A DNA stretch of 64,000 bases, from contig NZ_CP113064.1 in the NCBI RefSeq assembly GCF_026625805.1, positions 2,146,657 to 2,210,656 of the forward strand, written 5' to 3'. The DNA is from Brevundimonas sp. SL130 (GTDB lineage Bacteria > Pseudomonadota > Alphaproteobacteria > Caulobacterales > Caulobacteraceae). The notes under the pieces are model-generated. The model did no database searches. It saw only the letters and a program-made list of their open reading frames with translations, and was not told the origin of the DNA. Positions within the stretch are counted from its first letter, which is position 1, and the number at the start of each line of letters is the position of its first letter. Shown in pieces: positions 5,530 through 39,858 of the stretch. The position numbers and the translations under genes are program-made.

Positions 5530-6843
5530 TCAGTCCGCCAGATCAGGATAAAGGCGCTCGAATCGCCCGAGCGCGGCAGGATGCAGACGCACCGTGACAT
5601 GAGTACGTCCAAGGTCATCGGTATCCCGGAATGTCACCCGCCCATGCTCATACAGCCAGGCCAAGGCCTCGCCCTGCGCAGGCGCGAGCGTCAGACGCGT
5701 TTCCGGATCGTCGTCGATCAGGCCGGCGATGGTCTGGCGCAGAGGCTCGACCCCCTCGCCCGTCCAGGCGGAGACCGCGACCGCCTCCCCCGCCTTGGCC
5801 AGACGTTCAGCCTGGCCCAAAACAGCCTCACGCGCTTCGTCGTCCAGCAGGTCGATCTTGTTCCAGACCTCCAGCACGCGACGCGTCTTGCCCTCGGGCG
5901 TCTCGATCTGTTTCAGCACCGCCTCGACGTCCTTGGCCTGGGCGTCGCTGTCGGCCGAGGCGATGTCGCGGACGTGCAGGATCAGATCGGCTTCGCCCAC
6001 CTCTTCCAGCGTGGCGCGGAAGCTCTCGACCAGTTCGTGCGGCAGGTCGGAGATGAAGCCGACCGTGTCCGCCACAATCGCCGGCCGGCCCTGCGGCAGC
6101 CGGATGGTGCGCTGGGTCGTATCCAGGGTGGCGAACAGCAGATCCTTGGCGAAGACCTCTGATCCCGTCAGCCGGTTGAACAGGGTCGATTTGCCGGCGT
6201 TGGTGTAGCCGACCAGGGCGATGGTCGGGAACGGGACCTTCTGACGCTGTTTACGGTGCAGGCCGCGCGTGCGGCGCACCTCTTCCAGCTCGGCTTTCAG
6301 CCGCACGATCCGGTCGGCGATCAGGCGTCGGTCCAGCTCGATCTGGGTTTCGCCGGGACCGCCGGTCGAGCCGGTGCCCCCGCGTTGCCGCTCAAGGTGG
6401 GTCCAGGTCCGCACCAGGCGCGACCGCTCATAGTCGAGCCGCGCCAGCTCGACCTGCAGCCGGCCTTCCTTGGTGCGCGCGCGGCGTCCGAAGATTTCCA
6501 GGATCAGGCCGGTGCGGTCGATGACCTTCACCTCCCATTCCTTCTCCAGATTGCGTTGCTGCACCGGCGTCAGGGCGTCATCGATAATGACCGCCTCGGC
6601 ATCGGCCGCGCGGACCAAGGCGGCCAGTTCCTCGACCTTGCCGCTTCCAAACAGGGTGGCGGGCGTGGTCCCACGCAGTCGCACGATCTCTTCAGCGCGC
6701 ACATCAAGGTCCAGCGCGCGGGCAAGGCCCACGGCTTCCTCAAGGCGCTCGCTCGCCAGCCGAGGGCTGTCTGAGCGTCGGTCGGGATGGATAACGACCG
6801 CCCGGATCAGCGGGACGGAGTGGTCGATCAGTTTGCTGGTCAA
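5530..6843 (-). CDS. hflX: GTPase HflX
   Basis: 437 aa. G1 motif GYTNAGKSTLFN, G3 DTVGF and NKIDL. Immediately downstream of hfq, which is the conserved hfq-hflX pairing. Confidence 0.9.
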   Translation of the reverse strand: MTSKLIDHSVPLIRAVVIHPDRRSDSPRLASERLEEAVGLARALDLDVRAEEIVRLRGTTPATLFGSGKVEELAALVRAADAEAVIIDDALTPVQQRNLEKEWEVKVIDRTGLILEIFGRRARTKEGRLQVELARLDYERSRLVRTWTHLERQRGGTGSTGGPGETQIELDRRLIADRIVRLKAELEEVRRTRGLHRKQRQKVPFPTIALVGYTNAGKSTLFNRLTGSEVFAKDLLFATLDTTQRTIRLPQGRPAIVADTVGFISDLPHELVESFRATLEEVGEADLILHVRDIASADSDAQAKDVEAVLKQIETPEGKTRRVLEVWNKIDLLDDEAREAVLGQAERLAKAGEAVAVSAWTGEGVEPLRQTIAGLIDDDPETRLTLAPAQGEALAWLYEHGRVTFRDTDDLGRTHVTVRLHPAALGRFERLYPDLAD

Positions 6844-28596: not shown

Positions 28597-28728
28597 CACC
28601 CGTCATCCTAGGCCTTGTGCCTAGGATCCATAGACTCAGACGCCAGGAACGATCGCACATCCGCCGACCACGCCCGACGCTACACACCGAGCGTATGGAT
28701 CCTAGGCACAAGGCCTAGGATGACGGTG
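28597..28728. repeat. Long inverted repeat with 31-bp perfect arms, about 35 bp counting a 1-nt bulge, and a 61-bp spacer. MITE-like or structured-RNA-like.
   Basis: Arm 28602-28632 GTCATCCTAGGCCTTGTGCCTAGGATCCATA pairs with arm 28694-28724 TATGGATCCTAGGCACAAGGCCTAGGATGAC. It lies between the recG stop and the next gene. Confidence 0.6.
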
Positions 28729-28897
28729 ATCAAACAGCTCCCGCCACGTCTGCTGTTCCACATGGCGGACTTGGGGTGGAGGCGCAGAGCCCTATCGTTT
28801 CAGCCCCTGATCGCCTCCATCAGCGGCGTGATTCCCAGCACCGCCCTTTGGATCTTGCCTCATGCTTTTGGCGTCGCGACCGGCTAGAACGCCCCGG

Positions 28898-30511
28898 ATG
28901 TTGCGCCTCTCAGAACTCAAACTGCCCCTCGACCACCCGCCGGAGGCCTTGCCCGCTGCGATCGCCGCCCGCCTGGGCGTGCCGCCGCACGATCTTATCT
29001 CCTGGTCGATATGGAAGCGGGCGCACGACGCCCGCCGGAAATCCGCGATTCTGAAAGTCTATATCCTCGACGTCGAGGTGAGGGACGAATCGGCGGTGCT
29101 GGCCCGCCTTGCGGACGACCTGCACGTGGCGCCGACGCCAGACGTCGCCTATCGCCCGGTCGCTGTCGCACCCAAGACCGAGCGCCTTCGGCCGGTCGTG
29201 ATCGGGGCCGGGCCGTGCGGCTTGTTCGCCGGGCTGATCCTGGCCGAGATGGGGTTCAAGCCGATCATCCTCGACCGCGGCAAGGTGGTTCGGCAGCGGA
29301 CCAAGGACACCTGGGGCCTGTGGCGGAGCAGCAAGTTGGACCCGGAATCCAACGTGCAGTTCGGCGAGGGCGGCGCGGGCACCTTCTCCGACGGCAAGCT
29401 CTACAGCCAGATCAAGGATCCGCGTTTCCTGGCCCGCAAGGTGTTGACCGAATTCGTCGCGGCCGGGGCGCCGGAGGAAATCCTCACCGAGGCCCACCCG
29501 CACATCGGCACCTTCCGCCTGGTGACCATGGTCGAGGCCATGCGCGAGAAGATCGAAAACCTGGGCGGCGAATACCGCTTCGAGCACCGGGTCACCGACA
29601 TCGATCTCGACAAGGGCGTCCTCCGGGGCGTGCGCCTGCACACCGGCGAGACGCTGGAAGCCGACCACGTGGTCTTCGCCATCGGCCATTCGTCGCGCGA
29701 CACCTTCCAGACCCTCTACGAGCGCGGCGTCCATATCGAGGCCAAGCCGTTCTCGATCGGCTTCCGCATCGAGCATCCGCAATCCTGGATCGACCGGGCC
29801 ATGTTCGGCCCCTGCGCCGGCCACCCCGATCTGGGCGCGGCGGCCTATACGCTTTCACACCACTGCTCGAACGGCCGCACCGTCTACAGCTTCTGCATGT
29901 GCCCGGGCGGCACCGTAGTCGCGGCCACCAGCGAGCCCGGCCGCGTCGTGACCAACGGCATGAGCCAATATTCGCGCAACGAGCGCAACGCCAACTCCGG
30001 CTTCGTGGTCGGCATCTCGCCCGAGGATTACGGGAGCGACCACCCGCTGGCCGGCATCGAACTGCAACGGGATCTGGAGACCCGCGCCTATGCGGCCGGC
30101 GGCGGCGACTATTTCGCGCCCGGCCAGCTGGTCGGCGACTTCCTGGCGGGCCGCCCCTCGACCACGCTAGGCGAGGTCGTCCCCAGCTATAAGCCGGGCG
30201 TGCGCCCGACCGACCTGGCGCCGCTGATGCCCGACTATGTGATCGCCGCCATGCGCGAGGCCCTGCCCGTCTTCGGCCGCAAGATCGCCCGCTACGACGA
30301 CGCCCAGGCGGTTCTGACGGGCGTCGAAACCCGCAGTTCATCCCCGATCCGAATGACCCGCGGCGCCGACTTCCAGAGCCTGAACGTGCGCGGCCTCTTC
30401 CCTGCCGGCGAAGGCGCCGGCTACGCCGGCGGCATCCTGTCGGCCGCCGTCGACGGCATCAAGGTCGCCGAAGCCGTCGCCCGGTCGATGGTGGCGGAGG
30501 GGACGGCATAG
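28898..30511 (+). CDS. FAD-dependent oxidoreductase, uncharacterised COG2509-type
   Basis: 537 aa from MLRLSELKLPLDH. Dinucleotide-binding motif VIGAGPCGLFAG and a conserved C-terminal domain. Confidence 0.7.
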   Translation: MLRLSELKLPLDHPPEALPAAIAARLGVPPHDLISWSIWKRAHDARRKSAILKVYILDVEVRDESAVLARLADDLHVAPTPDVAYRPVAVAPKTERLRPVVIGAGPCGLFAGLILAEMGFKPIILDRGKVVRQRTKDTWGLWRSSKLDPESNVQFGEGGAGTFSDGKLYSQIKDPRFLARKVLTEFVAAGAPEEILTEAHPHIGTFRLVTMVEAMREKIENLGGEYRFEHRVTDIDLDKGVLRGVRLHTGETLEADHVVFAIGHSSRDTFQTLYERGVHIEAKPFSIGFRIEHPQSWIDRAMFGPCAGHPDLGAAAYTLSHHCSNGRTVYSFCMCPGGTVVAATSEPGRVVTNGMSQYSRNERNANSGFVVGISPEDYGSDHPLAGIELQRDLETRAYAAGGGDYFAPGQLVGDFLAGRPSTTLGEVVPSYKPGVRPTDLAPLMPDYVIAAMREALPVFGRKIARYDDAQAVLTGVETRSSSPIRMTRGADFQSLNVRGLFPAGEGAGYAGGILSAAVDGIKVAEAVARSMVAEGTA

Positions 30512-30796
30512 ACGAAAGGCGGCGCATCGCTGCGATCGTGCGACAATCCGGACCTCGTCAGAGGGCGTGGAGCAGACTTCATCCCCCCAGTCGAGTTTCG
30601 CCGAATGCCGCATCCGGCGGAAGGCATGCCGCCTTGCTCGCCGGTCCAACAGTTACGCTACGCGCCAGATCGGTCATTCACTGTCGGCCCCAAACGCGAC
30701 ATTCAGCGCGCGGCTCGAAAGTCGGGTTTCCGGCCGCTAGCATAAGACGGTTCGCGACCCGTTGCGGCCATTGGTGGCTTAAGGCACAAGCGATGC

Positions 30797-31126
30797 ATGA
30801 ATGACGCAGCCTTCGTTGAGCGCACGTTTGAAAGTGGCGACGACAAGATAACGATCCGCTTTCTGCAGCCTACTTTAGCTCCGGGCGGCGAGTATCAGTG
30901 CCGATGGGCAATCAACTGGCCCAATGGAGTTCGGCAACGCTATTCATGTGGTTTGGACGGTATTCAAGCGCTCATGTTGGCAATGAAGATGGTTCACTCG
31001 GAGCTGGTGGATAGCGACCTCTACAAGTCGGGAAAGCTGACATACGTCGATCAGTATGATTTGGACCTACCACCCGGCTGGGGCGAAGGTCAGTTGTATG
31101 TGCCACCGGAAGAGAACGGCAGCTAA
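30797..31126 (+). CDS. small hypothetical protein (109 aa) directly upstream of the flotillin gene
   Basis: ORF with the lower GC of the islet. It has no TM helix or signal peptide and I recognise no domain. Confidence 0.5.
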   Translation: MNDAAFVERTFESGDDKITIRFLQPTLAPGGEYQCRWAINWPNGVRQRYSCGLDGIQALMLAMKMVHSELVDSDLYKSGKLTYVDQYDLDLPPGWGEGQLYVPPEENGS

Positions 31127-31307
31127 CCACCCCTTGCCGACCTCCAGGGAGTCCGCTCATGGGCTCTCCCACGAAAGTCTGGTTTCGGTGATCCTGCCTA
31201 CGACGCACCCACCCCGCCACCCGCCTAGCCGGCGGCTGAACAGCCTCTCGCAATAGTTGCGCCCCACGGCCTTTATAGACATAGTCCGGCCAGTATCGGG
31301 GGACCAT

Positions 31308-32693
31308 ATGAACATCTACATCATCGCCGGCGGCGTAGCGCTCGGCGTCTTCGTCATTGGATTCCTGATCGCGTTGGTTCTGCGCCGGGTGGTCCCGACC
31401 AACGAAGTTCACATCGTCCAGCGCGGGCGGTCTCGCGTCAGCTACGGCGCCAGTCAGTCGGCCGGAAACGTCTACTACGAGTGGCCGGCCTTCCTGCCCA
31501 GGATCGGCGTCCTGGTGACCAAGTTCCCGGTCTCCATATTTGACGTGAACCTGAAAGACTACGAAGCCTACGACACCGGGCGCCTCCCGTTCCGGGTGGA
31601 CGTCCAGGCGTTCATGCGGATCGCAAAATCGGATACGGCGGCGGAAAAGGTCGCCAATTTCGACGAGCTGCAACATCAGCTGTCCGGCATCCTTCAGGGC
31701 GCCGTCCGGAACGTGCTGGCCACCCACAAGCTCGAAGACATCCTCGAAGCCCGATCAACCCTGGCCGAGGCCTTTACCGCCCAGGTGGACAATCAGCTTC
31801 AGGCGTGGGGCGTCGAGACGGTCAAGAACATCGAGTTCATGGACATCCGCGACAGCGCCAACTCGCAGGTCATCGCCAACATCATGGCGAAGGAGAAATC
31901 CCGCATTGATCGCGAGAGCCGCGAGGCCGTGGCGATGAACAGCCAGTTTGCCCAGACCAAGGAGATCGAGGCCCAACGCATCGTCGAGGTGAACAAGCAG
32001 GATGCTTTGCAGCAGGTCGGAATGCGGACGGCCGAGCAGGAGAAGCAGGTCGGTATCGCCAAGCAGGTCGCCGAACAGCAGGTTCTGGTCGCCCAGAGGG
32101 ACACCACCGAACGTGAAATGGATGTGAAGCTGGTCGCCGATACGCGCTCCGCCGACATCGCCAAGGGGGTCGCGGAAGTTCAGGCCGCGCAGGAGCGCGA
32201 GGTCACGATCATCCGGGCGGAGGGGCAGCGCCAACAGCAGGTCATCGCCGCAGAGGCTGAACGTCAACGGCTGGAGCTGGTCGCGCAAGGAACCCTGGCC
32301 CAGCAGAAGCTCGACGCCGAAGGACTACTGGCGCAGGGCCAGAGCCGCGCCGAAGCCGAGCGGCTCCTGCTTCTGGCGCCGGTCTCGACGCAGATCGAAC
32401 TCGCCAAGGAGATCGGCGGCAACGACGGCTACCAGACCTACTTGGTGCGCGTGGAGCAGATCAAAGCCGGGCAGGCCGTGGGCGTCGCCCAGGCTGAGGC
32501 CCTGAGCGCCGCCGACATCAAGGTGATCGTGACCGGCGGCGACGTGCCCCAGGGTATGAACAGCATCACCGACGTGTTCAGCGCGCGGGGCGGCCAAGCC
32601 CTCGGCGCGATGCTGGAGGGGCTGGCTCAGACCGACGCCGGCAAGGCCGTGGTGGAGCGGGCAACCAAGGGCGCTGCAAAGCTCAAAGAGTAG
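31308..32693 (+). CDS. flotillin-like SPFH/band-7 domain protein (FloT/YqiK family)
   Basis: 461 aa from MNIYIIAGG. An N-terminal TM helix, an SPFH domain and a long EA-rich coiled-coil flotillin tail (AEQEKQVGIAKQVAEQQ...). Confidence 0.8.
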   Translation: MNIYIIAGGVALGVFVIGFLIALVLRRVVPTNEVHIVQRGRSRVSYGASQSAGNVYYEWPAFLPRIGVLVTKFPVSIFDVNLKDYEAYDTGRLPFRVDVQAFMRIAKSDTAAEKVANFDELQHQLSGILQGAVRNVLATHKLEDILEARSTLAEAFTAQVDNQLQAWGVETVKNIEFMDIRDSANSQVIANIMAKEKSRIDRESREAVAMNSQFAQTKEIEAQRIVEVNKQDALQQVGMRTAEQEKQVGIAKQVAEQQVLVAQRDTTEREMDVKLVADTRSADIAKGVAEVQAAQEREVTIIRAEGQRQQQVIAAEAERQRLELVAQGTLAQQKLDAEGLLAQGQSRAEAERLLLLAPVSTQIELAKEIGGNDGYQTYLVRVEQIKAGQAVGVAQAEALSAADIKVIVTGGDVPQGMNSITDVFSARGGQALGAMLEGLAQTDAGKAVVERATKGAAKLKE

Positions 32694-32768
32694 CGTCGTA
32701 CAGGTCCGTCCGGCCGCCGACGGGAATGTCAGTAAGTAGCACCGCTCTCAACGTCGGCTTCCCACCCG

Positions 32769-33206
32769 TTGCGGACATTCAGCGCGACGGGCAGGTTCGG
32801 CGCCTGTGAATGCGCGAGGGGCTTTTCGACCGTGGAACATAAAGAGGTTTTAGCCCGCGCGCCTGGCTCTTTCATATTGGTTGGCGGTAGCGTGGAAGTC
32901 GATGCTCCCCCGTTTGGGGACGGTCCGGCCCGGCTCTGGGCCGATGAGCGTTGCGTCTGCATTGGAACCCTCGCTGAGGTCGATGGGCACGCGCGAGTGA
33001 TTGTCGGATCGAATGTTGATCACGCTAACCTCGCGCTAGCCTTCAGCGGTGAAATCTCCACTCCGGCCCGGCGACTGGTGGTTAGCGACGCTGAACTGAA
33101 CACGCTGATCGAAGTCGCCGTTCCTACCCAACTGACCAGCCTCTCGATCTGGACGAACGACGCCCGCGAACCAACCATGATCGCAATCAACGTCACGGAT
33201 CGTTAG
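32769..33206 (+). CDS. Hypothetical protein. Start uncertain: TTG at 32769, or the GTG 22 codons downstream.
   Basis: ORF in the islet. No recognisable domain. Followed directly by a full copy of the islet repeat. Confidence 0.4.
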   Translation: MRTFSATGRFGACECARGFSTVEHKEVLARAPGSFILVGGSVEVDAPPFGDGPARLWADERCVCIGTLAEVDGHARVIVGSNVDHANLALAFSGEISTPARRLVVSDAELNTLIEVAVPTQLTSLSIWTNDAREPTMIAINVTDR

Positions 33207-33324
33207 GTCCGCTTTCCACCCCTAGCCGCAGTTCGGCGGGTCCGCTTTTGGGCTGTGGTGCCGATGTCCGCTTTCCGCGCTGGTGTCGATGTCGTGGTCC
33301 GACCCATAGCGGACGTTTAGGGGC
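33207..33324. repeat. Islet-specific 118-bp intergenic repeat, full copy 1. Three direct GTCCGCTTT(C/T)C iterons plus a terminal inverted GCGGACGTT.
   Basis: About 90% identical to 34726-34840. Iterons start at 33207, 33240 and 33267, and an inverted GCGGAC at 33309. It begins immediately after a stop codon. Confidence 0.6.
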
Positions 33325-33694
33325 GCGTTTCTGCTTCTCGGAGCATTTGGTCGAAGACTTCCTCGGATAATTTCTTGAGGTCTTCGAACGCCGGAGCGGT
33401 TGATCGTTGATCACCGTTGCCCTCGCCGCTGATCCGGAGGCCTCGATCAGTCTTAGTAATTGTGAAGACGAATGGCGTCGCCGGGTTATCCGGAGCCGAG
33501 ACCACAATCAGCGTCCGCCGGTCATCACATCCGTAGGTCAGCCACTCGGTGCCGCCGAACGAGCGTTGTATCGGCCCACTCATGCATTGCAGCGGTTTCG
33601 CAGCGGGCTTATGATCCTGTTGAACAGGCAAAGTCAGCAGGGCAAATGCAATCACTGGCACGATTATTGGCACGGTTCGGTCCCCCAATTTCAC
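33317..33694 (-). CDS. small secreted hypothetical protein
   Basis: 125 aa. Predicted signal peptide MKLGDRTVPIIVPVIAFALLTLPV. Divergent from the next small secreted ORF. Confidence 0.5.
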   Translation of the reverse strand: MKLGDRTVPIIVPVIAFALLTLPVQQDHKPAAKPLQCMSGPIQRSFGGTEWLTYGCDDRRTLIVVSAPDNPATPFVFTITKTDRGLRISGEGNGDQRSTAPAFEDLKKLSEEVFDQMLREAETRP

Positions 33695-33785
33695 ATTGGA
33701 TCATGTAAAGGCCGATTTCCATCCGCAGTCGAACTTCCGCTTTCGACCCATTGCAGACGTTGGCCGATTGAACTTAGGAGAGCTG

Positions 33786-34178
33786 ATGATCATCGCCACG
33801 ATGTTGTTCGCTTTCTATCAATCGGCACCGCCTGCCGCAGCGCGGCCTGAACCTGCCGTCTGTGAACTATCCGAGCGTGACCTAGCGACAGGATCTCGGC
33901 TTTGGTGCCCTGCCGAGCTCCAGAGACGAGTGCCGCAAAGCCTCATGACGACGATGCCCATCGATGGGATCGGCAAGGGATGGGCGCTGTTGAAATGCGA
34001 CCTCGGCGAAGGTGGCGTAACGACGGCGTGCAGTCTCGTCGATGAGTCGGAACCGGGTTCTTCGTTCGGCGCATGGGCGAAACGCGTTCAGCTCAGAGCG
34101 ACTGCTCAGAGCACCGATGGCAGTTTTCCCCCTGTGGGCGATAGCTACTACGCCTTTGCTCGATGGGAGGTTCGCTAG
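33786..34178 (+). CDS. small secreted hypothetical protein
   Basis: 130 aa from ATG with aggaga 5 nt upstream. Hydrophobic N-terminus MIIATMLFAFYQSAPPAAA followed by a Cys-containing mature part. Confidence 0.5.
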   Translation: MIIATMLFAFYQSAPPAAARPEPAVCELSERDLATGSRLWCPAELQRRVPQSLMTTMPIDGIGKGWALLKCDLGEGGVTTACSLVDESEPGSSFGAWAKRVQLRATAQSTDGSFPPVGDSYYAFARWEVR

Positions 34179-34299
34179 CGTCTGCTTCACTCACCTAGCG
34201 GACGAAGGCATCGACCGCTTTCCAAACTGGCCGTCATTGTCTCTTTGCAGCAGTGACGTCCAAGACCGAAATCGACCCATTGCGGACGTTGAAGCCCCG

Positions 34300-34719
34300 A
34301 TGCCAAATGATCGAATGGAAGCGACCCCTTCGAGCCGGATCATCGACCAACGCGTCCGAAACAGGATTATGGAGGAATTGCTTGGGCTGGCAGAAGGCGA
34401 CGAGAGCGTTCGCCGCATAGGTGCCGGAGAATACTTCGAAGCCTTCTATGACTGGGTTCCGCATCGCGGCGATGGCATCAGACCGAATAGCGCGCTGACG
34501 CAGGATGAAGCCGCTCTTATCCTCAAAGTCAGCATCGCTCTGGACGAGGCATGTGACGCAACGCCTAAAATGGTGTCGACTCAAGAACTTATAGCTACCG
34601 GTTGGCCTGAACGGATTAAGCCACTCGCCCGATCCGCACTGGACCAGATGCTGAAGCGAGGCCGGTTTAGAGAAGAAATCGAAGAAGATGAGCCGTCATC
34701 AACCGCTCTTTGGCCTTGA
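34300..34719 (+). CDS. hypothetical cytoplasmic protein
   Basis: 139 aa from MPNDRMEATP. Acidic, no TM. Followed by repeat copy 2. Confidence 0.45.
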   Translation: MPNDRMEATPSSRIIDQRVRNRIMEELLGLAEGDESVRRIGAGEYFEAFYDWVPHRGDGIRPNSALTQDEAALILKVSIALDEACDATPKMVSTQELIATGWPERIKPLARSALDQMLKRGRFREEIEEDEPSSTALWP

Positions 34720-34725
34720 AGGGAC

Positions 34726-34840
34726 GTCCGCTTCCCACCCCTAGCGGCAGTTCGGCACGTCCGCTTTTGGGCTGTGAGGCCGATGTCCGCTTTCCGCGTT
34801 GGTGTAAATGTCGTGGTCCGACCCAGAGCAGACCATGGAT
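34726..34840. repeat. Islet-specific intergenic repeat, full copy 2
   Basis: GTCCGCTTCCCACCCCTAGCGGCAGTTCGGCACGTCCGCTTTTGGGCTGTGAGGCCGATGTCCGCTTTCCGCGTTGG...GTCCGACCCAGAGCAGAC. About 90% identical to 33207-33324. Confidence 0.6.
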
Positions 34841-34882
34841 AGCCAGCTTGTTTGACAGAACCAGACAAGGCACGGTCCATCC

Positions 34883-35161
34883 ATGACGCTAGCGCGCTAT
34901 CCCCTCGCAGTTCCGGCAGATCGGTTAGTTGCGGACATCGAAGCGCGACTAACTGCCGACCCAGATGGCCGTGTTGGATACGAGTGCCTGTTCATCACGA
35001 CGATATCCACCAGACCAGCGATGGCGTTCGAACTATTCCCGGAAGCGTTGAGGGCTCCAGGCTGGAAAGCGCACGTTGTCGAACAGCTGAGCCGGGCGGA
35101 ACGCGATGCTCGAGACGGCGAGGCGGTCTACTTCGAGCCCTATGGAGAAAATGTCCGCTAA
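34883..35161 (+). CDS. hypothetical protein (92 aa)
   Basis: ORF MTLARYPLAVPADRLVADIEARL... in the islet. A partial repeat copy (GTCCGCTAACC...GTCCGCTTTCCAGCGCG) follows its stop. Confidence 0.45.
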   Translation: MTLARYPLAVPADRLVADIEARLTADPDGRVGYECLFITTISTRPAMAFELFPEALRAPGWKAHVVEQLSRAERDARDGEAVYFEPYGENVR

Positions 35162-35430
35162 CCACCGCGAACAGATGTCCGGTACGTCCGCTTTCCAGCG
35201 CGCCCCTGCTGAATGCAAATGTGAGGAGAGCGGTTCGTATAGATGAACCAAGGACGGCAAACGACGCTTACCGCTCCTAATTTTCCGAAATGACGCTAAT
35301 CATTTCAACGCCCTAACGCGCCCGAACGGCCATCGACCAACCACGCCCCCGAGACTGTGCTAGCCTCGTCGTCCGGTCTTTGACATCGGGCGCGCGCCGC
35401 AGTCCGCCTGCGCCGTCCGCTCCCCATCAA

Positions 35431-35625
35431 CGCCACAGTCGTCGCCCCTGGCGCGTTTGGCGCCTTTGGCACGGTTGTCACCCTGTTTTCGCGCCAAACC
35501 GACCGGCCTCAGCCGATCATAAAGCCGCAGCCGTCGCCCATGGCGCATTTGGCGGTTTGTCACCCTGTTTTTACGACAGGCCTGCCAAAACTCAGCCGAT
35601 CATGCAGCGCCAGCCGTCGAACCCG
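35431..35625. repeat. Tandem duplication of about 2.4 copies, period about 83 bp, of the 3' end of the MBL-fold hydrolase gene. att-like.
   Basis: Units ...TTGTCACCCTGTTTT(C/T)...CTCAGCCGATCAT(A/G)...GCAGCCGTCG(C/A)... The last copy runs into the gene's final 11 codons and its stop. Confidence 0.5.
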
Positions 35626-36386
35626 ACCTCGACATTGGCCGGAACAATCGCCGACAGTTCCTTGTAATCCATGTCGATATGCAGGTTCGTCAGCACGGCC
35701 CGCTCGACATCCGCCGCCGCAATCCACTCCAGCGTCCGGTCCAGATGGGCATGGGTCGGATGGGGGGTGTAGCGCAGGGCGTCGACGATCCAGACCTGGC
35801 AACCCGCCACCGCACGGATCGCCGCCTCGTCCAGGTCCGACACGTCGCTGGAATAGACCATGTCGCCCAGCCGATAGCCGACCGACCGGATCGGCCCGTG
35901 CCCCTGATCGAAGGTCACGACCGGGATCGCGCCCCCCGGCCCCTCCACCGACCAGTCCGTCCCGTGGGGCGGAATGACCTGGGCGTCCAGCAGCGGCGGA
36001 TAGCCGAACTTGCTCTCGAAGATATAGTCGAACCGGTGCGACAGGGACGTCAGGGTCGCCTCATCCATCCAGGCCGGGATCCGCTTGCGCGCCCGCGTCG
36101 CGAAGGTCCGCAGATCGTCGATCCCGTGGGTCTGGTCCGCATGGTCGTGGGTATAGAGGACGGCGTCCACATGCCGGGTCTCGCTGGCCAGCATCTGTTC
36201 GCGCAGGTCCGGCGAGGTGTCGATCAGGATGTTGGTCATCCCCTCCGGCCCGGTCTTCCGCGCCAGCATCGAGCAGCGCGTGCGCCGGTTCCTCGGCTCG
36301 GCCGGGTCGCACACGCCCCAGTCGCCGTCGCCCCGCGGCACCCCGCCCGAGGATCCGCTGCCCAGGATGACGACTTCGAAACTCAT
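35592..36386 (-). CDS. MBL-fold metallo-hydrolase (PhnP-like)
   Basis: 264 aa. Metal-binding HxHxDH motif (YTHDHADQTHGIDD). Confidence 0.75.
   Translation of the reverse strand: MSFEVVILGSGSSGGVPRGDGDWGVCDPAEPRNRRTRCSMLARKTGPEGMTNILIDTSPDLREQMLASETRHVDAVLYTHDHADQTHGIDDLRTFATRARKRIPAWMDEATLTSLSHRFDYIFESKFGYPPLLDAQVIPPHGTDWSVEGPGGAIPVVTFDQGHGPIRSVGYRLGDMVYSSDVSDLDEAAIRAVAGCQVWIVDALRYTPHPTHAHLDRTLEWIAAADVERAVLTNLHIDMDYKELSAIVPANVEVGFDGWRCMIG

Positions 36387-39768: not shown

Positions 39769-39858
<90 letters not shown>

Follow-up and report, generated by a model that had tools for sequence, protein, structure and literature searches.

The 115-bp elements found in the window, the whole stretch of 64 kb of Brevundimonas sp. 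SL130 DNA that was analysed, are best explained as the junctions of a gene-cassette array in a hypervariable hotspot that lies between recG (and an FAD gene) and an MBL-hydrolase gene, with a TnpI-like recombinase acting on them in trans. We put the probability of this reading at roughly 0.55. What repeats in these elements is a unit of 28-30 bp, an imperfect palindrome of the form ATGTCCGCTTT-6 nt-AAAGCGGACAT, in which 11-bp inverted arms enclose an asymmetric 6-bp spacer (11-6-11); the 6-nt spacer is present in 100 of the 124 regex matches to units across loci. The preliminary description of this DNA had taken GTCCGCTTT as an iteron and as the repeating entity, when it is the left half-site of the unit. 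The direct iterons bounded by a single inverted copy were likewise a misreading of two palindromic core-type sites with direct half-sites between them. The spacers fall into two classes, CCACCC (A-type) and CGACCC (B-type), and an A-type unit, one or two direct half-sites and a B-type unit together make a composite element of 85-115 bp.

Sites in the Brevundimonas islet

A weight matrix trained on units from other genomes only (cut-off 8 bits) detects 12 related sites in the window, all on the + strand and all within 30743-35179, while the other 59.5 kb contain none; shuffled sequence gives 0-2 sites at this cut-off, about 0.4 on average. The motif GTCCGCTTTCC with up to one mismatch is matched nine times versus 1.8 expected, a count reached by 0 of 100 shuffles, and GACCCATTGCGGACGTT with up to three mismatches is matched five times versus 0.28 expected, the good matches of both being confined to 30.7-35.2 kb. 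The GC content is lower in the islet (0.58 versus 0.65-0.72). The features are listed below, with weight-matrix scores in bits and protein families from Pfam.

28748..28770, + strand: weak palindrome resembling a unit, ACGTCTGCTGT-TCCAC-ATGGCGGACTT, ahead of the FAD-dependent gene (regex match, 5-nt spacer)
30743..30772, + strand: solo B-type unit with a degenerate left arm, spacer GCGACCC and right arm GTTGCGGCCATT (11.7 bits)
30797..31126, + strand: cassette ORF, 109 aa, DUF6968 (PF22302, E 1.3e-22)
31115..31144, + strand: A-type unit GGCAGCTAA-CCACCC-CTTGCCGAC (12.2 bits)
31308..32693, + strand: cassette ORF, 461 aa, SPFH/Band 7, flotillin-like (PF01145, E 2e-17)
32750..32779, + strand: A-type unit GTCGGCTTC-CCACCC-GTTGCGGAC (33.9 bits)
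32832..33206, + strand: cassette ORF, about 124 aa, without family match; its stop TAG abuts the next unit
33204..33317, + strand: composite junction 1 (copy 1 of the preliminary description), A unit 33204-33233 and B unit 33288-33317
33317..33694, - strand: cassette ORF, 125 aa, reversed, without family match
33707..33761, + strand: short composite, in which a weak A-like unit 33707-33736 (10.6 bits) overlaps a strong B unit 33732-33761 (40.2 bits)
33786..34178, + strand: cassette ORF, 130 aa, without family match
34177..34290, + strand: diverged composite junction, A unit 34177-34206, half-site GACCGCTTT at 34213, B unit 34261-34290
34300..34719, + strand: cassette ORF, 139 aa, without family match
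34723..34836, + strand: composite junction 2 (copy 2), A unit 34723-34752, half-sites at 34759 and 34785, decayed B unit 34807-34836
34883..35161, + strand: cassette ORF, 92 aa, with its stop TAA within the left arm of the next unit
35150..35196, + strand: terminal A-type unit AATGTCCGCTAA-CCACCG-CGAACAGATG (9.0 bits), with a half-site GTCCGCTTT at 35186

The two full copies first recognised are real, given that 33207-33314 and 34726-34833, 1.5 kb apart, align over 108 nt without gaps at 90% identity. They are not the full count, which comes to four composites and the solo units at 30743, 31115, 32750 and 35150. The spacing of 33, 27 and 31 bp that had been proposed for the direct motifs measures 33, 26 and 31 nt in copy 1, where the half-sites GTCCGCTTT lie at 33240 and 33266, between the A and B units. 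The terminal inverted end is found in copy 1 (GTCCGACCCATAGCGGACGTT), while in copy 2 it has decayed to GTCCGACCCAGAGCAGACCAT. Similarly, only copy 1 starts right after a stop codon (TAG), copy 2 starting 6 nt after a TGA.

As a rule, A-type units stand at the stop codons of ORFs, and in two ORFs, those of DUF6968 and of 92 aa, the stop TAA is inside the left arm GTCCGCTAA of the following unit. B-type units stand 9-46 nt ahead of the next start codon, the one at 30743 being 24 nt upstream of the DUF6968 ORF. The elements thus begin at stop codons and end just before the next start codon, as expected of the cassette junctions that had been suggested. The units that flank the reversed ORF at 33317..33694 stay in the + orientation. 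The strong B unit of the short composite reads TTCCGCTTT-CGACCC-ATTGCAGAC, and the A unit of the diverged composite reads GTCTGCTTC-ACTCAC-CTAGCGGAC. A decayed half-site, GAGTCCGCTCATGGGC, follows the A-type unit of the DUF6968 ORF at 31148-31163. Decay is common among the units of the window, four of them having arm-only scores of 2-9 bits, and given these decayed units the array may be a fossil. The terminal A-type unit is the right border of the hotspot, and the palindrome at 28748..28770 may, tentatively, be its outermost site. The seven cassette proteins of the window have no match in PADLOC, and exact-protein look-ups of five of the window proteins found the 92-aa ORF alone on record.

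The position of the units at or within stop codons, and the 9-12-bp stem that they could form in RNA, would suit hairpins at the 3' ends of the cassette mRNAs, acting as terminators, stabilisers or processing sites. We consider this very improbable. Arm positions pair in 75.0% of cells versus 74.5% in shuffles, with a covariation score of 0.101 versus 0.091, and T.T and A.A mismatches between the arms are systematic. Since changes in the arms are uncompensated and show no covariation, the arms behave as half-sites of double-stranded DNA and not as a hairpin. The units are followed by RTTCRG and not by T runs, and the three terminator-like sites found by the scan, versus 4.3 in shuffles, do not coincide with a whole unit, two of them overlapping left arms of units on the opposite strand. 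Single-stranded folding of three composites on both strands was no better than that of shuffles (z from +0.11 to -1.93) and gave inconsistent structures, and gathering and permissive Rfam searches of 30.5-35.5 kb returned nothing relevant. An RNA hairpin would also leave unexplained why units keep their orientation beside the reversed ORF.

Cargo turnover at the sites

The recG-MBL locus carries entirely different cargo in B. aurantiaca, in B. mediterranea and in the Logan contig L001. At the right border, B. mediterranea and B. aurantiaca share the sequence from the spacer of the 35150 unit onward, while the left arm and everything upstream is cargo-specific, each cargo bringing a left arm of its own. 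The unit at 30743..30772 is conserved in a B. aurantiaca contig (L062) through the right arm, with divergence beyond it. In B. mediterranea the FAD gene is missing from the locus and a strong B unit adjoins recG. Two other contigs (L015 and L043) have a cassette and its composite in common and diverge right after the B unit. Altogether, cargo breakpoints fall at arm/spacer borders in six junction pairs that are independent of one another. With arms and spacers conserved everywhere, the unit is the limit to which these breakpoints can be placed, and recombination through short homology would look alike.

This coincidence bears on the possibility that the units are operator or silencer sites, comparable to stoperators, through which a conserved DNA-binding protein represses or insulates acquired cassettes that move by other means. 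Half-sites conserved as sequence and not as structure, and a single site of fixed orientation at each gene boundary, would be in keeping with such a function, and TnpI itself also regulates transcription at its own site (PMC7157771). An operator nevertheless leaves unexplained both the breakpoints at arm/spacer borders in six junction pairs and the two spacer classes in the fixed order A...B, and neither promoter-like signals at the units nor a regulator gene linked to them (ORFs of the window and 115 neighbouring ORFs) were found. We regard this explanation as improbable.

The cassettes are found in new company in other genomes. Composite junction 2 and the downstream 92-aa gene occur together in L001 next to a different left neighbour, and the 92-aa gene is also present, with 76% identity, in Brevundimonas sp. 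EYE_349. The same composite accompanies other cargo in at least 20 other alphaproteobacterial genomes. The elements are therefore not a novel family isolated in this islet, as had been proposed: the family is spread across Caulobacterales and other Alphaproteobacteria, with the same composite in many genomes of Brevundimonas, Phenylobacterium, other Caulobacteraceae, Sphingomonadales and Xanthobacteraceae. The cargo of the relatives includes NsnA/GmrSD and a PD-Lambda-3_B-like protein (PADLOC). These observations also refute a functionless local segmental duplication as the origin of the two long copies, which their 90% identity at a distance of 1.5 kb might have suggested, because the two copies have unrelated genes as neighbours and the elements accompany unrelated cargo in other genomes.

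Units with the same arms are also found in Gammaproteobacteria, their plasmids and their phages, where they delimit cargo in the P2 Z/fun hotspot, in lambdoid prophages and in plasmids. In three prophages of E. coli, three different cargos lie between identical flanks, TAGTCCGCTTTGAGCGA on one side and TGGCACAAAGCGGACAA on the other. In P2, two units bracket fun(Z), and the Z region of P2-EC48 is an array of the form unit, ORF1, two units, ORF2, unit, ORF3, unit. For the E. coli hotspot no empty allele was found, the nearest case keeping 230 bp of cargo. The presence of the same sites at cargo borders of E. coli phages hints at a cassette-exchange system that has not been described.

The spread of the units could also reflect selfish palindromes of the REP or MITE kind, mobilised by a RAYT-type or other transposase, whose presence at cargo borders would be a matter of tolerance and of occasional homologous recombination between copies. 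The units are indeed extragenic palindromes of 24-30 bp, often paired as in BIMEs, and there are several loci per genome in some cases (four contigs in Phenylobacterium palsa_901 and two in B. intermedia); moreover, the closest named repeat, CIR, is grouped with small mobile repeats. We nonetheless consider such an origin unlikely. Selfish repeats would be expected to scatter, but the window outside the islet has no units, the relatives L062 and L066 have none outside the hotspot (2 x 20 kb), and E. coli has a median of one unit-bearing place per genome. Of 5,426 complete E. coli genomes, 2,018 carry units. The arms are conserved from Alpha- to Gammaproteobacteria, whereas REPs are species-specific, all units of an array share a single orientation, and cargo always carries its own arms. 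The unit consensus has neither the GTAG head nor the compensatory changes of REPs and BIMEs, and, although cargo lies between inverted arms, no target-site duplication of the kind left by a MITE is present, the flanking 6-mers being systematically different (CGACCC versus CCACCC, GAGCGA versus TGGCAC). The preliminary view that these are not REP or terminator hairpins thus stands, given the lack of a T tract, of pairing covariation and of scatter across the 64 kb and the relatives' 2 x 20 kb.

Likeness to TnpI resolution sites and a proposed exchange

The resolution site of TnBth4/Tn5401 consists of the core AATGTCCGCTAAT-TAAT-ATTAGCGGACAT and the direct repeats ATGTCCGCTAAT and ATGTCCACTAAT, and the units of the window match it closely. 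The 9-mers are identical, the half-site ATGTCCRCT being present in both, and in both 10 nt separate ATGTCCGCT from AGCGGACAT, for 28 bp overall. With respect to the 12-bp TnpI-binding motif ATGTCCRCTAAY, the arms read ATGTCCGCT(T/A)(T/A), and an exact ATGTCCGCTAA is found at 35151. When an arm-only matrix of the alphaproteobacterial units was run on 50 kb of pBMB126, the TnpI core ranked first with 31.4 bits, the next site having 17.5. The accessory repeats also have their counterparts: the half-sites at 33240, 33266, 34759 and 34785 lie 3' of an A core in left-arm orientation, and the TnBth4 site (contig L089) has direct half-sites at 6679 and 6714. The earlier impression of a protein-binding or recombination site is thus supported, as a likeness in sequence.

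In the cassette reading, each cassette would end at its stop codon with an A-type unit and the next one would be opened by a B-type unit, the layout being that of the TnpI internal resolution site (IRS): an inverted core pair and accessory direct repeats at a spacing of roughly three turns. A TnpI-like tyrosine recombinase, encoded elsewhere, would act in trans, binding the half-sites and exchanging strands across the 6-bp spacer. Recombination of A with A and of B with B would then excise, insert or swap a cassette, and the different spacers would prevent recombination of A with B. As the two units that flank a cargo differ in their spacers, insertion of a circle by a single crossover is not directly supported, and neither an empty site nor a circular cassette was observed. 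Recombinase genes were sought with Pfam and with phmmer, the latter with five seeds that included Int, TnpI of Tn4430, TnpI of TnBth4 and a resolvase. No tyrosine or serine recombinase was found among the ORFs of the window, nor at any unit-bearing locus out to about 4-10 kb (115 neighbouring ORFs), and the window and the unit-bearing loci have no Tn3 transposase that would indicate a tnpI-tnpA or Tn3-family context. Given that no cognate recombinase lies nearby, the mechanism is one that we infer. It speaks against the cassette reading that the known TnpI enzymes are resolvases of Bacillus transposons.

Comparison with known systems

Integron arrays, including those without an integrase (CALIN), resemble the islet in having small, mostly promoterless and co-oriented ORFs, each with a site of 55-115 bp with inverted ends at its 3' end, stop codons inside the site, and the same cassette in different contexts. 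Several right ends of the elements even read GCGGAC-GTT. That the elements are attC sites is, however, scarcely credible. Composite left ends read GTCCGCTTTCCACCC and right ends GACCCATTGCGGACGTT, which are direct and not inverted relatives, and no single long bottom-strand hairpin forms; the RYYYAAC...GTTRRRY pair is absent, as are R and L boxes, and an IntI gene and attI nearby. The sites of the window appear instead to be double-stranded palindromic core sites, unlike the folded single-stranded attC. The hosts differ as well: IntegronFinder-type surveys found integrons, In0 and CALINs to be absent from all 243 alphaproteobacterial genomes surveyed, an absence that the authors called 'extremely puzzling' (PMC4889954). 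A screen of 10,705 phage genomes reported no more than three integrons and 17 CALINs and makes no mention of a P2-like phage (PMC9892861).

A broader reading, which we hold tentatively and would not call probable, is that an integron-like cassette system has gone unrecognised in Proteobacteria (including the integron-less Alphaproteobacteria), their temperate phages and their plasmids, a shared system in which modules lie between two heterospecific 28-bp core sites of the TnpI type and a trans-acting tyrosine recombinase excises, inserts or swaps them. The literature states that it is not known how the defence hotspots of P2/P4 and of prophages exchange their cargo so very fast. What is found here is a conserved two-site junction that matches a biochemically defined tyrosine-recombinase site and that coincides exactly with the borders of cargo, both in the Brevundimonas islet and in P2, lambdoid prophages and plasmids. 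Both puzzles, the absence of integrons and the turnover of hotspots, thereby gain a testable handle in the form of a searchable site, a predicted class of enzyme and predicted circular intermediates. Should the integron-like system be true, it would supply the missing mechanism for fast turnover at P2 Z/fun, at lambdoid hokD-DUF977 and in chromosomal islets; should the sites be only fossils or operators, they would still be a useful annotation, as a widespread and orientation-specific marker of accessory-gene modules.

The pdif (XerC/D) modules of Acinetobacter plasmids and the IMEX elements are similar in that 11-6-11 sites of 28 bp delimit modules of one to three genes and the recombinase gene is not adjacent, in pdif because a host enzyme acts in trans. 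The units themselves are not dif or pdif sites: their arms do not match the XerC/XerD consensus (..CGCATAA / TTATGT.AA.T), and the dif of C. crescentus, AAGATCGACTTTGTAATTTATGTAAAGT, and other alphaproteobacterial dif have nothing in common with ATGTCCGCTTT/AAAGCGGACAT. Iterons of the plasmid type and an origin of replication were rejected as well, given that a rep gene is lacking and that the unit is a palindrome. A shufflon sfx site agrees with the units in no more than the 7-mer GTGCCAA, and the resemblance to a serine-resolvase res site is limited to TGTCCG, which is similar to the gamma-delta half-site. A literature search for GTCCGCTTT, CCGCTTTCGACCC and similar strings returned unrelated primers only, and BLAST of copy 1 against plasmids gave no match.

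In Caulobacter and Brucella, the CIR repeats (Chen and Shapiro 2003, via Delihas 2008; PMC2229807) are described as intergenic elements, conserved among Alphaproteobacteria and about 110 bp long, in which a linker connects two inverted-repeat arms. On that description the composites of 85-115 bp, with A and B palindromes joined by a linker, are alike. CIRs are further defined by the CcrM motif GANTC in the loop (PMC2229807). There is no GANTC in 33204-33317 or 34723-34836, and it occurs in some relatives only, such as L038 with its spacer TGACTC.

For the inverted repeats associated with lysogenic conversion at P2 Z/fun (GenBank AJ512681; Nilsson et al. 2004), the likeness lies in the units with the same arms that delimit fun(Z) in P2 and ORF1-3 in P2-EC48, the first unit falling within the annotated 'left inverted repeat'. 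They differ from the sites of the window in their spacer classes, GTGCCA and TCGCTC, and in their host, an enterobacterial phage.

The IRS of Tn4430 (116 bp, built around an IR1-IR2 core, with cleavage staggered by 6 bp and DR1 and DR2 34 bp apart) and those of the tnpI-tnpA transposons of Legionella and Rickettsia, the closest proteobacterial TnpI-like transposons, have the same plan of an inverted core and two direct accessory motifs, but their binding motifs (CAACACAAT and ATCGCATAAT) have unrelated sequences. The IRS of Tn5401/TnBth4, a Tn3-family transposon of Bacillus thuringiensis, occurs once per transposon, whereas the sites of the window are many, stand in direct repeat between cargo genes of a proteobacterial host and have neither a tnpI-tnpA pair nor Tn3-type terminal repeats nearby. 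The central 10 nt of the window sites are GC-rich and of two classes, and the composites end in a second palindromic site (B). In both systems, direct half-sites follow the core on its 3' side at a spacing of about three turns, and the whole site extends over about 100-116 bp.

Repeat units in a low-GC islet

The repeats are carried by a 4.7-kb islet with a GC content of 0.58, against 0.65-0.72 around it; recG and mfd lie to one side of the islet, tatD, holB and tmk to the other. Its seven ORFs encode a DUF6968 protein, an SPFH/Band-7 protein and five small products without a family match, one of these being encoded on the opposite strand.

Composites in the islet and its immediate neighbours
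28862-30511, FAD-dependent gene, neighbour on one side
33204-33317, + strand, composite
33707-33761, + strand, composite
34177-34290, + strand, composite
34723-34836, + strand, composite
35592-36386, MBL-fold hydrolase gene, convergent, neighbour on the other side

The two long copies from which the preliminary description derived a repeat of about 115 bp are real (90% identity over 108 aligned nucleotides), and the short motifs occur well above chance and in the islet only. Comparison with other genomes reveals that GTCCGCTTT is only a half-site of a 28-bp imperfect palindrome, (A)ATGTCCGCTTT - 6 nt - AAAGCGGACAT(T), the 6-nt spacer being found in 100 of the 124 regular-expression matches across loci. 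A weight matrix trained solely on units of other genomes located 12 units in the window, all on the + strand and all within 30743-35179 (shuffles gave approximately 0.4), and none in the rest of the window. Two spacer classes, CCACCC (A-type) and CGACCC (B-type), alternate along the array. A-type units start at the preceding ORF's stop codon or a few nucleotides later, with the TAA stop falling within the arm GTCCGCTAA in two cases, and B-type units finish 9-46 nt ahead of the next start codon. In composites (85-115 bp), an A unit is joined to a B unit through one or two direct half-sites, and four solo units stand beside the four composites. The units flanking the sole reversed ORF keep their orientation. 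Given that several units have decayed, the window array may no longer be active.

In a test of arm pairing with 48 units from approximately 25 genomes, changes in the arms were found to be uncompensated (75.0% paired cells versus 74.5% in shuffles), and the recurrent variants GACCGC, GCTGAC and ATAGCGGAC stay unpaired. Composites fold no better than shuffles, no T tract was found after the units, and a search of Rfam gave no match, which argues for arms that are conserved as sequence, as expected of double-stranded protein-binding half-sites. Terminator-like and promoter-like signals at the units are at background level.

The FAD-dependent gene has a high GC3, is absent from the recG-MBL locus of B. 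mediterranea (records L066 and L067) and apparently also from that of the Logan contig L001, and is preceded in the window by a weak unit-like palindrome (28748-28770); this gene may itself be hotspot cargo. Between it and recG lies a large inverted repeat (28600-28726), whose 38-nt arms are 95% complementary, are separated by 51 nt and both hold the palindrome ATCCTAGGCCTTGTGCCTAGGAT; L001 begins with a copy of this repeat. At the other side, a direct repeat CTCAGCCGATCAT... (35508-35536 and 35591-35619, spacing of 83 bp) overlaps the 3' end of the MBL gene and is also present in L066. Further away, in a lower-GC stretch adjoining tRNA-Ser (39769-39858), an IS5-family DDE transposase fragment (PF13586; 40160-40486, - strand) probably marks what remains of another insertion site.

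Cargo turnover and proposed mechanism

Close relatives, with an MBL protein 95-97% identical, have entirely different contents at the recG-MBL locus. In B. aurantiaca these are the FAD gene and a single 234-aa gene; in B. mediterranea, where the FAD gene is missing, they are three other cassettes with B, A..B and A..B units of the same orientation between them. At the right border, the sequence from the spacer on (CCACC.C GAACAGATGTCC...) is common to all three genomes, and the left arm at the end of each cargo is a version peculiar to that cargo; on the left side, divergence sets in at the B unit's right arm. Two Logan contigs also contain the 92-aa gene together with the composite upstream and the unit downstream of it, here preceded by another neighbour, a GmrSD/NsnA-HEPN operon, and the homology begins between the left arm of the A unit and its spacer. 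B. intermedia and a Brevundimonas MAG have a cassette and its composite in common at another locus, and diverge directly after the B unit. Without exception, the elements at ten further Brevundimonas loci are placed in low-GC3 islets, made up of small ORFs and bordered by high-GC3 core genes; within an islet all elements point the same way, and the chromosomal positions of the islets differ.

Since the cargo breakpoints are resolvable only to the level of the conserved unit, they are also compatible with movement of the cargo by short-homology recombination. The best-supported reading is that a Tn5401-TnpI-like tyrosine recombinase, provided in trans, would use the units as its core sites, the composites being IRS-like junctions. 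Cassettes would be excised, inserted or exchanged when two sites of one kind recombine (A x A, B x B), and the difference between A and B spacers would prevent the ends of a single cassette from recombining with one another. Full TnpI sites in direct repeat favour deletion, and minimal cores allow relaxed, intermolecular recombination (PMC2847244), a behaviour that fits the placing of composites between cassettes and of solo units at the borders of arrays. No recombinase linked to any array was detected with Pfam on the window and 115 neighbouring ORFs or with phmmer using recombinase seeds, and neither a circle nor an empty site was observed.

Distribution and phage hotspots

Composites matching a strict pattern are found in many Brevundimonas species, Phenylobacterium, Caulobacteraceae, Sphingomonadales, Xanthobacteraceae and other Alphaproteobacteria, with one or a few loci in each genome and with cargo that includes TIR-domain proteins, a LanM-type synthetase and penicillin amidase. 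Unexpectedly, Gammaproteobacteria have units with the same arms: an exact GACCGCTTTCGACCCAAAGCGGAC on a P. cerasi plasmid, doublets [..TGGCAC..]-12 nt-[..GAGCGA..] on Pantoea plasmids, units on Klebsiella and Citrobacter phage-plasmids, and, among 5,426 complete E. coli genomes, units in 2,018 (at a median of one place each). Similar arrays in IMG/VR viral contigs (57-67% GC) include a third spacer class. This class, TGGCCG/CGGCCA with the same arms (records L086 at 510 and 2289, L080 at 7007 and L051 at 4672), forms pairs with CGACCC units in viral contigs, and a Pseudomonas cerasi plasmid has it as well.

In lambdoid prophages, three different cargos lie within identical flanks, the left ending in TAGTCCGCTTTGAGCGA and the right beginning with TGGCACAAAGCGGACAA, and each cargo has a decayed right arm at its start and a good left arm at its end. 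An empty hokD-DUF977 hotspot was never found in E. coli lambdoid prophages (L056, L057, L059; 2,836 flank-matching records); a single one of these records had both flanks within 720 bp, and there 230 bp of cargo remained. A unit with a 5-nt spacer in an E. coli O157:H7 prophage (L055, 6004-6030), between a dGTPase-family gene and xis and beside the prophage integrase, marks another cargo position bounded by the motif. P2 has one unit at the edge of the Z/fun hotspot, a short way downstream of gene G, and a second at the far edge. The Z region of P2-EC48 is a three-cassette array with a unit at each junction, the first of which falls within the GenBank feature 'left inverted repeat'. In 2004 the enterobacterial version was reportedly seen, at least partly, in the form of inverted repeats on either side of lysogenic-conversion genes of P2. 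Recent papers on the hotspots make no mention of the units and describe the mechanism of exchange as unknown.

Resolution sites and other known systems

Tn4430's internal resolution site (IRS) measures 116 bp, with a core formed by an inverted pair of TnpI-binding motifs cleaved with a 6-bp stagger, and two accessory direct repeats approximately 34 bp apart (PMC2847244). The Tn4430 IRS sequence itself was examined. What had been described as direct iterons some three helical turns apart with an inverted copy is exactly this core-plus-accessory layout; the proposal of recombination or protein-binding sites at cassette junctions holds, and those of iterons and of a private novel family are abandoned. 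The TnpI motif of Tn5401, which we take to be ATGTCCRCTAAY, was confirmed on the sequence of TnBth4. The res site of TnBth4 is reported to be that of Tn5401 (PMC7157771). Between parDE and tnpI-tnpA, TnBth4 carries AATGTCCGCTAAT-TAAT-ATTAGCGGACAT, after which come ATGTCCGCTAAT and ATGTCCACTAAT in direct repeat, and its core has 9-mers (ATGTCCGCT / AGCGGACAT) and an intervening length (10 nt) identical to those of the window unit. With an arm-only matrix from alphaproteobacterial units, this core was the top match in 50 kb of the Bacillus plasmid (31.4 bits; runner-up 17.5).

Tn3-family tnpI-tnpA modules are also present on Legionella and Rickettsia plasmids (L090, 2300-2450; L091, 2330-2430), and the sites upstream have dif-like half-sites (ATCGCATAAT / ATCGTATAA) in a layout of an inverted core plus two direct repeats. 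Given that these TnpI-like transposons have the same site architecture with different motifs, the layout is general for the TnpI recombinase family and the motif specific.

Integrons were rejected for lack of R/L boxes, single-strand hairpin and IntI, and surveys list Alphaproteobacteria as without integrons and CALINs (PMC4889954). REP/BIME elements were rejected given the low copy number, the restriction to islets, the absence of GTAG and the conservation of sequence across classes, and a MITE or MIC given the absence of target duplication. The units resemble dif/pdif sites in their 11-6-11 geometry and in having no recombinase gene nearby, but their arms are unrelated, and this candidate was also rejected. 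The composites resemble Caulobacter CIR, compared by its description only, in size and two-arm layout, but the defining GANTC site is absent from the window elements. Judged by sequence, the elements are best filed as putative TnpI/IRS-type recombination sites serving as cassette-array junctions, and they reach notably into phage hotspots.
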